This document shows positions 27,001 through 33,000 of a stretch of 64,000 bases of DNA, piece by piece. Positions within the stretch are counted from its first letter, which is position 1, and every line of letters begins with the position of its first letter. This DNA comes from an uncultured Chloroflexia bacterium. Lineage in GTDB: Bacteria > Chloroflexota > Dehalococcoidia > UBA2979. The stretch spans positions 480,001 through 544,000 of the forward strand of contig CAVSIV010000006.1 in assembly GCA_963728205.1 (NCBI GenBank), given 5' to 3'. Position numbers: made by a program.

Positions 27001-30000
27001 TTCCACCGTAGCACCACCGATCATCGACACTTCCGCTCCCTGGTTGGATGACTCGCGTGGGACACTTGTAGACGTTTCGATCGTGTCGCAATCTGTATGT
27101 TGCGAGTCTGATCCCTTGGCTCAACGAAGCAGGCAGAAAGGCCCCATGGCGAAATTCACGCAGTTGAACCCGCGAGAAGTCATGATCGGCAGGGAGCGCG
27201 CCGCCATCGAGGCGCGACGTCCCTACCAGGAGGCGTTGGAGGCGAGCGACGCCGGCCAGATCGAGCTGGCGCGCGGCGACGTGCCGTCGACGGTGAAGCG
27301 CCGCCTGGCGGACGCGGCGAAGGACATGGGCGTGCGGGTGCGGTCGAGCTGGACCGACCCGAAGCAGCGCGTCCTGGTGTGGAAGAAGACCGGGAGGAGC
27401 GCGGCACCGAGGGCGCGGCGCGGGAGCGCGAACGGGGCCTCGCACAGGTAGCGTCGGCGGCGGTGTGTGCCGCGGTTCCCAGCGGCCGGGGCATGCCGGC
27501 GGCGCACCGGGGCGGCGGCTACGGGTGGTACGGGACCGGCGACGGGCCGACCTGCGACCGCAGGATCGGCTGCGCGTCGTGCACGAACTCGCAGAGCAGC
27601 GGGCGCGTGTCGCGCGGATCGATCACGTCCTGGCCCGTCGACTCCGCCGTGCGGAACGGCGACGCGATCGCCTGCAGCCGCGCCTCGATCTCCGCGCGGC
27701 GCGCCTCCGGGTCGCGGCGCGGCCTCGATCTCGCGGCGGTACGCCGCGGCCACGCCGCCCTCGATGTGCATCGACCCCCAGCGGCCCGACGGCCACACGT
27801 AGCGCCGGAACATCCCGGTCGGCCGCTGCTGGCACTGGCCGGCCACGCCGTAGAGCTGCGCCCACCACCACCGTGATCCACGGCATGCGGCTCTCGCACG
27901 TCGCGATCACCAGCCGCGCGCCGGCGCGCTCGATGCCCCGCTTCTCCGACTCCAGGCCCACCATGAACCCCGGCTCGTCGGCGAACGACACGAGCGGCAG
28001 GTGGAAGGTGTCGCACAGCGCCATCAGCCGGATCACCTTCTCCCCGGCCGAGACGTCCGTCGTGCCGCCGAGGTACACGGGGTTGTTCGCCATCACGCCG
28101 ACCGCGTAGCCGTCGACGCGCGCGAGCCCGGTGATGCGCGACCGGCCGTAGCCCGGCGCGATCTCGAAGAAGGAGTCGCGGTCGACGGCGGCCTCGATGA
28201 TGCGGTGCGCGTCGTAGGGGCGCCGCCGGTCCCGCGGGACGACCGACAGCAGCGACTCGTCGCGGCGCGCGGGGTCGTCGGTCGGCTCGGCGCGCGGCGG
28301 CAGCTCCCATACGTTCGACGGCAGATAGGAGAGGAAGCGGCGGATCGTCGCGAGCGCCTCGGGCTCGCTCGCCGCGACGTTGTCGACGACGCCGCTCTGC
28401 GTCCCGTGGATCGCGGCGCCGCCGAGGGCCTCCTTGTCGATGTCGTAGCCGAGCGCGGCCTTCACCACGGGCGGGCCGCCGGGGAAGAGCTGGCTCGTGC
28501 CGGCGACCATCACGTTGAAGTGCGCCATGCACGCGTTCACGGCCGGCAGCCCGGCCACCGACCCGAGCACGGCGGAGACGACCGGCACGGCGCGCAGCAG
28601 CTGCACGTCGTACTGCGCCCAGGCGTTGCCGTCGGGGAGATAGGTGCGCCCCATCTCCTCGAACGAGCGCACGCTCCCGCCGGCGGCGTCGAGCAGCCGC
28701 ACAAACGGCACACGCCACTCCAGCGCGCGACGCGTCGTCGGCAGCTCCGCGCCCATCCCGTCGGAGCGGCTGCCGCCGGAGCCGCCGCGCACGGTGAAGT
28801 CGCCGCCGCTCACCACCACCTTGCGGCCGTCGACGGTGCAGAAGCCGTCGACCGACGCCTTCGGCGTGAAGTCGACGAGCTGCTCGTCCTCGTAGGTGGC
28901 GCGGCCGACGAGGCCCATGAACTCGCGGAACGAGCCGGGGTCGGCGAAGGCGTCGATGCGCTCGCGGACGGTGAGCTTGCCGGAGGCGTGCTGGCGGGCG
29001 ACGTTCGCCTCGCCGCCCATGCGGGCCGCGAGGGCGCGGCGTCGTTCGAGCTCGTCGACCTCGGGTTGCCAGGTCATGGGTGGGACTCCTCCGTGCCGCG
29101 CGGACGCCCGGGTCGGGCGGCGTACACGGTAGCGCGCGGGGAGCCGGACACAACGGGAGGCCGGCTCGCGCCGGCCTCCCCACCCAGGGTGCGGGACAGG
29201 GTGCAGTACCCCTGTGCCGCTACCCAATCCAACGCGCGATGGACCCGGACGTAGGGGTCGGCGACGGAACTGATAGCCGCAGATTCCGGGGCGGCCGCGC
29301 GCCGTTGCAGCCGCGTCTCGATTATGACAAGCGCCGGGTGGGCGCCGTGGGCGAACCGCGCCCTCGCGGACGCGATCCCTCGTCGCAAGCGGCGGCAGAC
29401 ACGCCGCCGATATCGCCGGCGGCGACAGCCGCCGCTCCCCGCTCCCCGCTCCCCGCTCACGCGATGTGCCGTCACACCTCCCCGTCCCACGTGCGCGTGT
29501 CCAGCCGCACCACGAGCGGGTACTCCTGGTCCCTCACGTATCTCACGGCCGCGATGACCGCCGGTTCCGAACGGAGGAGCCGTGTCGAGCCGGACTGGGT
29601 CCACCACGTCCCCGACTCGGGCCGCCTCCACCGTTCGTTCAACGCCCGCGACGCGTATGCCTTCAGCGTCTTGAGCAACGTCGAGGCAGGCGGGTCGGCC
29701 GGTACTCCGATGACGACGTGCACATGGTTCGACATGACCGCCGTCGCGAAGCATGTCCACCCCCGGTAGCGTGCCTGCGCGTCGATCGCGTCGGCCGCGA
29801 CCTCGGCCTGCAGGGCGGTGAGGCGAATGGGATCTCGCTTCAAGAGGCCAGATGCAGTGATGCGCAGCCATGCCGCGGCGGGGGCGTCGCCGGAGAGAAA
29901 CGCGGGGACGCGGCGGCCCGACCCGTCGGGGACACGGAGCTTCGATCCGCGGGCGTCGCCGGGGAGCCATGAGCCGTACGTGGTCCATGTGAGCAGCCAT

Positions 30001-33000
30001 GTGCGGTCGACGGGCGGGAGCGGCGCATCCACCGGGAGATCCTGCCGGATGGCGGCGAGCCGCGCACCGAGGAAGTTGCGGGCACCGGCAGCGTTGCGGG
30101 TGCTGGGAGGATTGCGGGGGCCGAACGGCGGCTGTCGCCGCCGGCGATATCGGCGGCGTGTCTGCCGCCGCTTGCGGGGGCCGAACGGCGGCTGGCGCCG
30201 CCGGCGATATCGGCGGCGTGTCTGCCGCCGCTTGCGGGGGCCGAACGGCGGCTGGCGCCGCCGGCGATATCGGCGGCGTGTCTGCCGCCGCTTGCGGGGG
30301 CGGAGCGGCGGCTGGCGCCGCTTGCGCGGGGGGAGGGGGCAGGCGGGAGCCGCCATCGACGTCGAGGGAGCGCGGGTGGCGCGAGCCCGCGCGATTGCCG
30401 GACCCTACACTCACGCCATGTCCGCTCACGCGTCGCCGCCGCTGCACGGAGTCGCCGGCCTCGTCGGCCGTACGCCGCTCGTCGCGCTTGCGCGGCTGGC
30501 CCCGGAGCTGGACGTCCATCTCTTCGCCAAGCTCGAGCAGGGCAACCCGACGGGCAGCGTGAAGGATCGCATCGTGCTGCGCATGTTCGAGCGCGCGCGG
30601 GCCTCCGGCGCGCTCGCGCCCGGGCAGACCGTGGTCGAGGCGTCGACCGGCAACACCGGACTCGCGACCGCGATGTTCGGGCGGCTGCTCGGCCACCCCG
30701 TCGAGATCTGCGTGCCGGAGAGCGTCTACCCCGAGATCGGCTCGCTGCTCGCCGGGTACGGCGCGCGCATCCGCTGGGTGCCGCGGCAGGCCGGCATCAA
30801 GACGGCCATCGCGGCCGCCGAGCACGTGGCCCGCGAGGAGGGCGCGTTCTTCCTCAACCAGTTCGGCAACGAGGAGAACGTGCGCGCGCACTACGAGGAG
30901 ACCGCCCGGGAGATCCTCGAAGCGCTGCCGGCGGTGGACGCGTTCGTCGCGGGCGTCGGCACGGGCGGGACGGTCACCGGCGTCGGCCGGCGCCTGAAGG
31001 AGGCGAACCCCGACTGCAAGATCGTCGGCGTCGAGCCGCGCCTGGGCGTGCACGTGCAGGGACTGACGTCGATGGACGAGGGCTACATCCCGCCGCTGCT
31101 GGACGAGTCGCTGCTCGACGCGAAGCTGCTCGTCGGCAACCGCCACGCGGTGGCGCAGGCGCGGCGCATCCTCATGGCCGAGGGGCTGTTCGTCGGCATC
31201 AGCAGCGGCGCGGTGACGCACGCGGCGCTGCGGGTGGCGTCGCGCCTGGGCTCCGGCAACGTCGTGATGATGTTCGCCGACGGCGGGTCGAAGTACCTGA
31301 GCACCGAGCTGTGGAGCGCGGCCGACCCCGACGCCGACCACCTCCCGGAGGACCCCCTGGACGACGTGCTGTGGTGGTGATGCTGCTCGCCGCGCGGCGG
31401 GCGTCGGGCCCGCCGCATGCGGTGCCGCGCGGGTGCACGGCAGTCACCACAGCGGCGGCAGACATGCCGCCGACGGGACGCGGATGCAGTCCGCGGCTGG
31501 CGCCGCGCTGCTGTCGGCGGCATGTCTGTCGCCGCTGTGACGCTCCGCCGGGGCCTGCCCGTCGACAGGCTCAGGGCCGGCTCTGCCGCGCGCCGGGGAA
31601 CGCGTGATGGCCGACCTCGTCGCGCCCGGCTGCTGGTGGCTGCACGCCACGTCCGGCAGCAACGTCTACCTGCTCGAGGTCGATGGCGGCGACCTCGTCC
31701 TCGTCGACACCGGCTTCGGGTCGAGCGCGCCCGGCATCATCGACGAGCTCGCCGCCCTGGTCCCCGGCCGCGCGCCGTCGCTGATCCTGCTGACGCACCA
31801 CCACGTCGACCACGCCGGGGCCGCCGCCGCGCTGCGGGACCACTACGGCTGCCCGGTCGTCGCCGGCGCCGCCGACTGCGCGCCGCGGCCCGACGGCGTC
31901 TTCGAGCTGCGCGAGCCGGTCGGCCGCTCGCACCTGCTGCGGCGCGTCCGGCGCCTCGCGGGCCGCCGCGCGGCGCCGCGGCTCATCGTCGACCGCGCGC
32001 TCAGCGGCGGCGTGCGGGTCGCGCCCGGGCTGCTCGCCGTGCCGACGCCGGGCCACACGCCGGGGTCGTACTGCTACGTCGCGCCCGACCGCGACCTGGC
32101 GTTCGTCGGCGACCTCGTGATCAGCCACGAGGACACGCTGGCCCGCCCGCTGAAGATGACGAACGACGACGACCCGCAGTACCTCGTGACGCTGGCGGCG
32201 TTCGCCGAGCAGGCGCCGGCGATCGGCTGCGCCGGGCACGGGCCGCCGGTGACCGAGGACTTCGGCCCGCAGCTGCGCGCGCTGGCCGCGCTGCCGCGCC
32301 GCGGCATGTTCTCGCCGTGGGGCATGCTCGACCGCGCGCGGCGCCTCGGCGTGTTCTCGCGCCGCATCCGCCGGCCGGGGGGACGGTAGGCGCGCGCAGC
32401 AGCCGGCGCGCCTCAGCGTCGGCAGATCGGGCCGCCGACCCCGCGGCGGGCGCCCAGCCGCCTGTCGCCGGCGCGCGGCGACCGCCCGGTACACTCCCCT
32501 CCTCCCACACACCCCGGATCGGAGCCCGACGCGTGCACACTCTTCGCATCTCCCACCCCGGCATCTCCGGCGCGCACACCGCCGCCACCATCCGCTTCTA
32601 CACGGAGGTGCTGGGCATGGAGATCGTGCTGCGACAGCGGAACCTCGACTACGAGCCCGAGGACCACATCCTCTTCCACGTCGGCGACGACAACTTCATC
32701 GCCTACTTCCTGCCGCGCGACGAGGGCGCGCGCGAATACCCGCAGGCGCAGGGTGGCTCCGGCCACATGGATCACCTGGCGATCGACGTCGACGCGGCCG
32801 CGCTGGACGAGGCGGCGCAGCGGCTCGAGGCCGCGGGCGTGCCCTTCGAGCGGGCGGAGCGCGGGTACGAGCGGTCGCTCTACTTCCAGGACCCGAACGG
32901 CGCGACGCTCGAGCTGCTCGCGTGGCACACACCGCCGCCGCCGGGCATGTCGCAGGCGGCGATCCTGCGCCGGGCGCAGGCGCTGCGCGAGGCGCGCGGC

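Follow-up and report, generated by a model that had tools for sequence, protein, structure and literature searches.

Does the solitary HUH/Y1 transposase gene R1 form a cognate system with the hairpin repeats that bracket it, and to which class of transposase does it belong? R1 lies in a 64-kb window (the whole stretch of DNA analysed here, C6:480001-544000 of assembly G000) of a Chloroflexota genome. The assembly is a metagenome-assembled genome (MAG) of 4.13 Mb in 6 contigs, with 72.5% G+C, 89% completeness and 5.6% contamination, and R1 and its repeats are on one 1.87-Mb contig (C6). An initial annotation had read the locus as a gene resembling the tyrosine transposases that accompany repetitive extragenic palindromes (REPs), known as RAYTs, enclosed by REPs with a foot other than GTAG. 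The analysis reported here indicates that the R1 locus is a real, strongly non-random, cognate Y1-enzyme/hairpin-repeat system, with an activity that is predicted from sequence. Very probably, R1 is a member of the class-3-type HUH/Y1 (RAYT-like) family living with a population of extragenic hairpin repeats.

The locus comprises the gene and two sets of flanking hairpins:

29472..30032, minus strand: R1, a 186-aa class-3-like HUH/Y1 (RAYT-like) gene with a GTG start, HUH residues H103/H105, predicted catalytic Tyr165 and Gln169
29384..29440, unstranded: 3'-flank REP doublet, two hairpins with their feet outward
30112..30321, minus strand: 5'-flank array, 3.5 tandem 60-bp units with 98% matches (Tandem Repeats Finder)

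The open reading frame (ORF) of R1 runs on the minus strand from a GTG start (30030-30032), with AGGA 7 nt upstream, to a TGA stop (29472-29474). The resulting 186-aa product is identical to the public protein P0002, and the crude caller based on G+C at third codon positions (GC3) that was used for the window (58 genes, coding fraction 0.80) chooses the same start. The longest form of the ORF (to 30356) runs through the upstream repeats. Spurious long ORFs cross the REP array at 30112-30321 on both strands (e.g. 29472-30356, minus), encoding repeated RKRRQTRRRYRRRRQPP-like peptides, and automatic annotation could push the transposase start into the array. The neighbouring genes encode a carboxyl transferase (27623-29227, minus) and a pyridoxal-phosphate-dependent enzyme (30418-31380, plus), so R1 stands alone.

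The protein carries the motifs TWTTYGSWLPGD, NHVH and YVRDQ, and also W-W-T. Its score with Pfam Y1_Tnp (26.2 bits) is above the cut-off of 23, and with no adjacent tnpB the initial description of a stand-alone Y1 transposase is borne out. Both of the more specific NCBIfam models scored under their cut-offs, namely REP_Tyr_transpos (NF047646; 40.7 bits, cut-off 80) and transpos_IS200 (NF033573; 21.5 bits, cut-off 55). H103, H105, Y165 and Q169 are invariant across 20 aligned homologues. The AlphaFold model of R1 (pLDDT 92.9) is about 50 aa longer than IS200/IS605 TnpA, with extra N-terminal strands, and all 30 of its Foldseek matches in the PDB at E ≤ 0.001 are IS200/IS605 TnpA or E. coli TnpA_REP (4er8), the likeness to the two being about equal. 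A sequence profile against the PDB matched IS200-type transposases (2f4f at 1.4e-6) and did not reach 4er8 at E ≤ 1. The top PDB sequence match, to the designed repeat protein 8pjv/8pjt, was rejected as spurious, as no stretch passes on its own. The predicted structure shows R1 to have the IS200/TnpA_REP fold, with the HUH motif, Tyr165 and Gln169 intact.

The hairpins on both sides of R1 are of one subtype, (C)GCAAG-CGGCGGC-AGACAC-GCCGCCG-AT. In the 3' doublet, a CGCAAG foot and a hairpin at 29390-29409 (6-nt loop, plus strand) are followed by a 7-nt linker and a second hairpin at 29417-29434, which has a 4-nt loop and, on the minus strand, a GGGGAG foot. As single-stranded DNA (ssDNA) this region (29380-29440) folds into one nested long hairpin of -24.5 kcal/mol (z -3.98). 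Each unit of the 5' array likewise consists of a CGCAAG-footed hairpin and a partner hairpin with a 4-nt loop. Its cores, at 30151-30170, 30211-30230 and 30271-30290 on the minus strand, are inverted relative to the 3' core at 29390, such that the feet point away from the gene. The initial annotation had marked a 50-nt element at 29385-29434 and three tandem 60-bp inverted copies at 30121-30300. Both are real, the former reaching 29384-29440 once both feet are counted and the latter forming part of the 3.5-copy array with its three inverted cores. The partner hairpin was discarded as a general part of R1-type elements; it is present in only 10 of 59 copies, which makes the composite 50-60-nt unit mostly a feature of the R1 locus.

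A search of both strands of the window for the core, allowing ≤2 mismatches, gave 39 matches, with 0.04 expected. These represent 34 distinct positions, because five near-palindromic sites match on both strands, in agreement with an earlier manual count of about 34. None of 100 dinucleotide-preserving shuffles reached 39 matches, and none gave more than one. By the same crude gene calls, all 34 sites are intergenic, and at 9440 and 47613 a TAAG foot holds the TAA stop of a gene, much as had been noted from the sequence. A perfect stem and an AG foot occur together in 26 window copies; eight of these are exactly of the R1-flank type, three and two fall into two further types, and the remaining 13 are variants of other kinds. 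The claim that R1 has its own REP family therefore holds in part: a strict flank type exists, but it makes up only 8 of the 26 AG-footed copies in the window and 59 of 596 in the genome. Other window copies match the flanks of the paralogues R2 and R3 described below, and the 34 copies are several subfamilies tied to different paralogues, not one family.

Counted across the genome, as the initial annotation had suggested, the core occurs 422 times exactly and 601 times with ≤2 mismatches. Hairpins of the form CGGCGGC-N3-8-GCCGCCG number 771, and in 596 of them AG lies directly 5' of the stem on one strand. Foot positions -2/-1 are AG in 92/96% of copies, and position +1 is A in 93%. The CGGCGGC stem is about six times as frequent as the next perfect 7-bp stem (1436 versus 244, two-strand counts). 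The copies fall into 295 clusters; singletons account for 106 and doublets for 161 (147 with their feet outward), and the direct arrays have as many as 30 units. Adjacent pairs are feet-outward in 157 cases versus feet-inward in 4. Only 3 of the 295 clusters lie within coding sequence, versus 449 of 885 random intervals. The repeats are present on 5 of the 6 contigs, and the abundant subtypes, written as foot / loop / tail, are the following:

CAAG / AGACAC / AT (R1 flank; strict type): 59 genome copies
CAAG / AGCAT / AT (R2 flank): 40 genome copies
ACAG / AGAYAT / AC (R3 flank): 93 genome copies
AAAG / AGAYAT / AC: 95 genome copies

The remaining AG-footed copies are many minor variants. These feet confirm the proposal of a non-GTAG foot: CAAG at R1, and ACAG and AAAG elsewhere, have only the last two bases, AG, in common with GTAG. 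For each abundant subtype the top or second 100-kb bin lies at or beside its gene, in a count that arrays inflate. The 59 strict R1-type copies include 17 in feet-outward doublets and 22 in direct arrays. Repeat strand could not be related to replication direction, as the GC skew of the three large contigs is too weak and noisy to locate an origin or terminus.

Eight paralogue loci (R1-R8) were found by tblastn, with 38-68% identity to R1 and none near-identical. The HUH motif, Tyr and Gln are intact in R1, R2, R3, R5 and R8, and each of these five genes is flanked by a hairpin type of its own:

R1 flanks: CAAG/AGACAC/AT only, 4 of 4 copies
R2 flanks: CAAG/AGCAT/AT only, 2 of 2 copies
R3 flanks: CCACAG/AGAYAT/AC only, 6 of 6 copies within 2 kb
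R5 flanks: inverted pair GAG-CGGCAGT-N6-ACTGCCG; 2 genome copies
R8 flanks: inverted pair GGCGAG-CGGA(A/G)GGCG-N3-CGCC(T/C)TCCG; about 22 genome copies

The flanking copies are always arranged alike: the one 5' of the gene runs in the gene's direction and the one on the 3' side is inverted. AG is kept directly 5' of the stem in the flanking hairpins of all five intact paralogues. R1 and R2 are sisters (Shimodaira-Hasegawa-like approximate likelihood ratio test, SH-aLRT, 99) with a shared foot (CAAG) and tail (AT) and different loops (AGACAC versus AGCAT), suggesting that the loop separates their substrates. The ratio of non-synonymous to synonymous substitution rates (dN/dS) is 0.21-0.40 for R1/R2, R3/L004, R8/L012 and R5/L008 (L numbers denote homologue loci), rough values at a dS of 0.97-1.36, near saturation. 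Two loci are pseudogenes: R4 (C6:1380647-1381170) is frameshifted once, and R6 (C6:227149-227654) combines a frameshift with TAG where the catalytic Tyr codon should be. No REP of the CGGCGGC family lies within 2 kb of either. R7 (C6:1622713-1623246, minus) has H-V-E in place of the HUH motif, Arg in place of the Gln after Tyr, and one flanking hairpin.

The relatives searched were three congeneric genomes, 21 genomes from 20 other genera in the family and 16 from as many other families in the class. With a threshold of E ≤ 1e-5, all three congeners gave a match to the protein and the other 37 genomes gave none. The exact core has 518 matches here versus 0-1 in the congeners and none in the 37 more distant relatives, with reversed-pattern controls at 0. 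With the loop left free and the same foot, stem and tail, 27, 12 and 2 copies were found in the congeners, with loops such as TGACAA, versus 556 here; the congener assemblies are fragmented MAGs of 260-380 contigs and their counts are lower bounds. The repeats, at about 600 copies, are roughly at least 20 times as numerous here as in the congeners. Among the relatives searched, only one genus appears to have the class. Four orthologous groups, R3/L004, R5/L008, R8/L012 and R7/(L015, L013), were recovered with SH-aLRT values of 95-99. In the first three, the hairpins keep a related foot and tail and differ by compensatory stem changes, which is the co-variation of flanking hairpins with homologues that the initial annotation had looked to as a check; L010, another congener locus, keeps a GGCGAG foot. 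R7 is the only syntenic locus, with both flanks conserved across three species (68-79% identity by tblastx). Its orthologues L015 (genome G002) and L013 (genome G003) have R-V-H, and Trp replaces Tyr, with a dN/dS of 0.21 for L015/L013 and 0.49 for R7/L013 (dS near saturation, rough). The R7 lineage may be a non-cutting, exapted derivative.

Beyond the genus, 589 homologous proteins were found at E ≤ 1e-3, and a profile search of 1.84 billion cluster representatives gave 170 matches at E ≤ 1e-30, rising to 1556 at E ≤ 1e-10. The best 80 genome loci (in which L004 is the same locus as L058, and L099 lies within L012) are nearly all from Planctomycetota, with which the Atlas agrees; the tree rows comprise 72 Planctomycetota, 2 Pseudomonadota, 1 Acidobacteriota and 1 Chloroflexota. 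The quick tree, with 38 of 90 inner branches open and an unresolved backbone, favours neither one nor several acquisitions in Chloroflexota, and no particular donor. An exact inverted repeat of at least 12 nt between the flanks is present at 51 of the 76 homologue loci with usable flanks. The motif GAGC[CG]G occurs within the 350-bp flank at 71 of 75 loci, at 7.37 per kb versus 2.54 per kb further out, and a typical hairpin reads GGCGAG-CGGGGGAC-GTGA-GTCCCCTG-ATT. This motif count replaced a generic scan for AG-footed hairpins at 78 loci, which gave 0.91-1.76 in the flanks versus 0.33 per kb per strand. The scan was rejected as a test; control feet (CG 155, CC 109, GC 90) exceed AG (71) and the orientation is mixed. 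Among the 209 proteins with the motif pattern, HVH is the commonest form (122), W is followed by T in 184 and by A in 12, and Gln lies at +4 after Tyr in 192 and only at +5 in 11; R1 has YVRDQ. Class-3-like domains also lie inside the longer proteins P0172 (1311 aa), P0210 (1477), P0205 (814), P0193 (608) and P0209 (618), which may be fusions or gene-call run-ons.

In the motifs NHVH and W-T, in taxon range and in hairpins, R1 and its homologues match class 3 of the TnpA_Y1 proteins as defined by Quentin, Siguier, Chandler and Fichant (2018; BMC Genomics 19:475, PMC6006769). In the available text of that paper, class 3 proteins are of about 178 aa with NHVH and W[TA], occur mainly in Planctomycetes, Acidobacteria and Proteobacteria, and are flanked by atypical hairpins with a 5' CnGA foot, Solibacter usitatus having about 600 hairpin copies and three class 3 genes; subclasses of class 2 are tabulated there with WE, WQ or W[YH]. 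R1, at about 180 aa, shares NHVH, W-T and a conserved N-terminal region, and its homologues are mostly from Planctomycetota, with some from Acidobacteriota and Pseudomonadota. Stand-alone genes, several non-GTAG hairpins reaching hundreds of copies and several related genes per genome are further likenesses. The homologue loci have GGCGAG-C(G/C)G...GTNA... hairpins similar to those given for Planctomyces limnophilus, Legionella and Solibacter in Table S1 (for example CACGAG-CCGGAAGC-GTGA-GCGACGG; PMC6006769), and both R8 and L010 retain the GGCGAG foot.

Certain differences are also evident. The hosts named for class 3 in the available text of PMC6006769 do not include Chloroflexota; the abundant subtypes here have CAAG, ACAG or AAAG feet rather than CnGA(G), with AAG or CAG in place of GAG at R1-R3; perfect 7-bp GC-only stems with 5-6-nt loops stand against weak bulged stems with GTNA loops; and the genome has eight diverged paralogues, five of them intact, in contrast to three close ones. 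As to the Tyr motif, the form here is Y-V-x-x-Q, whereas YV[VI][AENY]EQ is printed in the table and 'Y- - - -Q' in the text of PMC6006769. As far as the available text goes, the printed motif came from few sequences, class 3 having had 10 members, five of them without conserved motifs, and later 24. With the reservation that the Tyr motif is not an exact match, R1 is provisionally filed as class 3 TnpA_Y1 from its motifs, taxon range and hairpin likeness. The initial suggestion of a different, undescribed transposase clade is thereby set aside, since the class 3 description in that paper, so far as available, fits NHVH, W-T, the range of taxa and the homologues' GAG-footed hairpins. Non-GTAG feet and a population of about 600 copies (Solibacter) are already known from the same source. 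The Chloroflexota host genus, the feet changed to AAG/CAG, the perfect GC stems and the multi-paralogue panel are new. A literature search on RAYT/REPIN/TnpAREP found, among the papers listed, no system described in Chloroflexota, other than the GTAG-type REPs (GTAG-23) of the Chloroflexi species Thermomicrobium roseum in the text available of Di Nocera et al. (2013, PMC3733652).

The class 2 RAYT/TnpA_REP systems of E. coli, Pseudomonas, Stenotrophomonas and Marinomonas (Ton-Hoang 2012; Bertels and Rainey 2011; Corneloup 2021) share with this one a single-copy gene type within inverted REPs (REPtron), one REP type per gene type, extragenic copies that are mostly inverted doublets folding into a long hairpin, and an unpaired conserved foot 5' of the stem with AG as its last two bases. 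They differ in that the feet here are CAAG, ACAG, AAAG and CGAG, with no GT at foot positions 1-2; the NF047646 score (40.7 bits) is under the 80-bit cut-off; and the metal ligand after Tyr in R1 is Gln, as in IS200 enzymes, versus Asn (N119) in E. coli TnpA_REP. Moreover, profiles reach IS200-type structures and not 4er8, and the orthologue loci are mostly non-syntenic. With IS200/IS605 TnpA (IS608, ISDra2), R1 shares the fold and the arrangement of HUH, Tyr and Gln, and the system would share subterminal hairpin recognition with a guide tetranucleotide 5' of the hairpin. In contrast to those elements there are here no identical gene copies and no tnpB, the hairpins vastly outnumber the genes, the NF033573 score is under its cut-off, and R1 has the additional N-terminal strands described above. 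The REPIN, reportedly described by Bertels and Rainey in 2011, is said to be two inverted REPs that fold into one long hairpin. Doublets account for 161 of the 295 clusters here (147 feet-outward), and the R1 3' doublet folds in this way, but only 17 of the 59 strict R1-type copies are in such doublets, with 22 in direct arrays.

The other repeat features of the window are listed below:

33078..33451, minus strand: one plus-strand copy at 33078 and six copies in a direct array (cores 33194-33449, period 46), of the R1-flank REP type or one close to it, between two genes
56712..56982, minus strand: REP cluster with cores at 56712 (minus) and 56746 (plus) and four direct copies at 56826-56950 (minus), period 35
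62442..62641, unstranded: two feet-outward doublets, 62442 (plus)/62492 (minus) and 62571 (plus)/62622 (minus), R1-type mixed with CCACAG type
49173..49254, unstranded: AAAG-footed doublet with feet outward, measuring 62 bp from core to core
51632..51677, unstranded: tight feet-outward doublet, foot CCTCAG, 26 bp core to core
31453..31534, unstranded: feet-outward doublet of the CCACAG type (the type flanking paralogue R3)
25186..25268, unstranded: feet-outward doublet, loop AGAGAT
15981..16129, unstranded: pair of diverged copies, plus at 15981 and minus at 16110
9434..9459, plus strand: single copy, TCTAAG foot containing the TAA stop of the gene ending at 9438
47607..47632, plus strand: single copy, CCTAAG foot containing the TAA stop of the gene ending at 47611
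10971..10990, unstranded: single copy with the palindromic loop AGATCT, matching on both strands

An 8-bp unit, ACGCGGCA, is repeated 16 times at 51494-51621, just upstream of the REP doublet at 51632, and a 261-273-bp repeat of about 4.7 copies occupies 22674-23930. Elsewhere on the contig there is a repeat desert at C6:900000-1300000, with 3 AG-footed copies in 400 kb versus 8-61 per 100 kb over most of the rest of the contig; a different origin of the region, its gene density or the assembly might account for it. Long direct arrays comprise 30 AAAG-footed hairpins with a 27-bp period (C6:821785-822614), 16 copies at 25-27 bp (C6:1411434-1411886) and 9 copies at 47 bp (C6:394663-395058). A second over-represented stem, CGCGGAC (148 two-strand counts; feet AGC or GGA), lies between both REPs of R3-flank doublets (e.g. 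C6:845133), suggesting that it may belong to a REPIN-like unit rather than to a separate family. Sequencing runs were also compared with the genome; only 0.05-0.11 of words were shared with DNA runs, and no RNA run was among the matches.

A cognate RAYT-like/REP system, as initially proposed, is supported by the inverted bracketing and by the paralogues and orthologues that each carry their own flanking hairpin; multicopy near-identical genes, which would have spoken for an ordinary insertion sequence (IS), were not found (38-68% identity), and the flanking inverted repeats recur at 51 of 76 homologue loci. Several points nevertheless weigh against this reading. REP mobility itself is inferred. 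The AAAG-footed subtype, with its 95 copies, has no adjoining paralogue, the R5 hairpin occurs at the two flanks of its gene and nowhere else in the genome, and the tandem R1-type copies (22 of 59) could be yielded by replication slippage without an enzyme. In the generic hairpin scan a clean outward bracket was seen at only 15 of 69 loci of the Planctomycetota homologues, and the low repeat counts in the congeners may reflect assembly loss. The R3, R5 and R8 orthologues of the congeners have non-syntenic flanks, which makes them more IS-like than strictly vertical, fixed-locus RAYTs. According to the available text of PMC6006769, class 3 calls for experiments, and in the available text of Corneloup 2021 (PMC8266576) only groups 2 and 3 were tested and class 3 is unmentioned (0 occurrences).

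The non-syntenic orthologues would suit an autonomous IS200-like element (TnpA only) that is selfish, spreads horizontally and is not domesticated; the hairpins would form its subterminal ends, and the dispersed copies would be solo ends or derivatives resembling miniature inverted-repeat transposable elements. So would the profile match to IS200-type PDB transposases and not to 4er8 at E ≤ 1, the likening of class 3 to both IS and REPtrons in the available text of PMC6006769, where it is proposed as possible intermediates between IS200 enzymes and RAYTs, and the presence of the family only in this genus among the 40 relatives searched, with its nearest homologues in Planctomycetota, which suggests horizontal arrival. 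Such an element appears very improbable given eight paralogues 38-68% identical to R1 with no near-identical copy, four paralogue lineages common to the congeners, an excess of hairpins over genes of about 75:1 with one gene to each subtype, an upstream flank that is a 3.5-copy array with no defined IS end, and the low transpos_IS200 score (21.5 bits versus 55). Alternatively, host processes (slippage, recombination, or selection as terminators or mRNA stabilisers) might spread the hairpins, with the Y1 protein merely binding, trimming or landing on them. Direct tandem arrays are indeed common, up to 30 copies at a 27-bp period, and take in 22 of the 59 R1-type copies; several copies abut or contain stop codons in a terminator-like manner; and the R7 lineage is conserved despite lost catalytic residues, which indicates that non-catalytic roles exist in the family. 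Slippage, however, does not account for some 300 dispersed loci, nor for the 157:4 bias in pair orientation, an unpaired AG foot that is invariant, or the bracketing of each paralogue by one subtype. The intact HUH, Tyr and Gln in five paralogues and the dN/dS of 0.21-0.40 in four pairs also speak against an origin in host processes, which we regard as very improbable. Chance GC palindromes in a genome of 72.5% G+C, or mis-binning of the MAG, might be suspected from the many GC-rich 7-bp stems that occur 50-240 times (two-strand counts) with diffuse feet and from the 89% completeness and 5.6% contamination. Such an artefact has a negligible probability, being refuted by the shuffles (0 of 100 with more than one match versus 39 observed) and the reversed-pattern controls (0-1 versus 518-556), and the repeats lie on 5 of 6 contigs, with gene and repeats together on C6.

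For the class-3-type system that we favour, a mechanism can be outlined by analogy with IS608/ISDra2 TnpA and E. coli/Marinomonas TnpA_REP. R1 would bind the folded hairpin on ssDNA, probably on the lagging-strand template. Recognition of the enzyme's own subtype, and the choice of a nearby cleavage site, would fall to the loop together with the unpaired 5' foot, chiefly the AG at its end. Cleavage would proceed via a 5'-phosphotyrosine at Tyr165, with the metal held by HUH and Gln, and the strands would be rejoined; the REP doublets would be the unit copied or moved while the gene stays single-copy. In the selection (SELEX) experiments with Marinomonas, A3G4 of GTAG were the bases most strongly selected and were tied to the choice of a CT site, according to the available text of Corneloup 2021 (PMC8266576). 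The conserved AG is the same dinucleotide in the same place, and a guide role is therefore expected for it.

A wider reading, put forward tentatively and in our view somewhat unlikely to hold as a whole, would treat the genome as a natural specificity panel. Five intact class 3 paralogues would each have a private substrate, AG would direct cleavage to its site in the manner of A3G4 in Marinomonas, and the pairing would be set by foot positions -4/-3 with the tail and loop, R1 and R2 being split by the loop alone. The R7 lineage, which has lost HUH and Tyr residues but stays syntenic in three species and under purifying selection, would perhaps bind REPs without cutting them, exapted to regulate or protect the repeats.

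For this genome, these repeats account for a large share of the intergenic repeats and for several mis-extended ORFs in its annotation. R1 and its seven paralogues provide paired enzyme and substrate sequences with small, defined differences in foot, loop and stem, a basis for cross-specificity experiments. If the wider reading is true, class 3 would offer compact (about 186 aa) ssDNA nucleases/ligases whose targets could be changed through a readable code. The findings extend class 3 to Chloroflexota, and recognition and cutting by the proposed IS200-RAYT intermediates become addressable through the paralogue panel.

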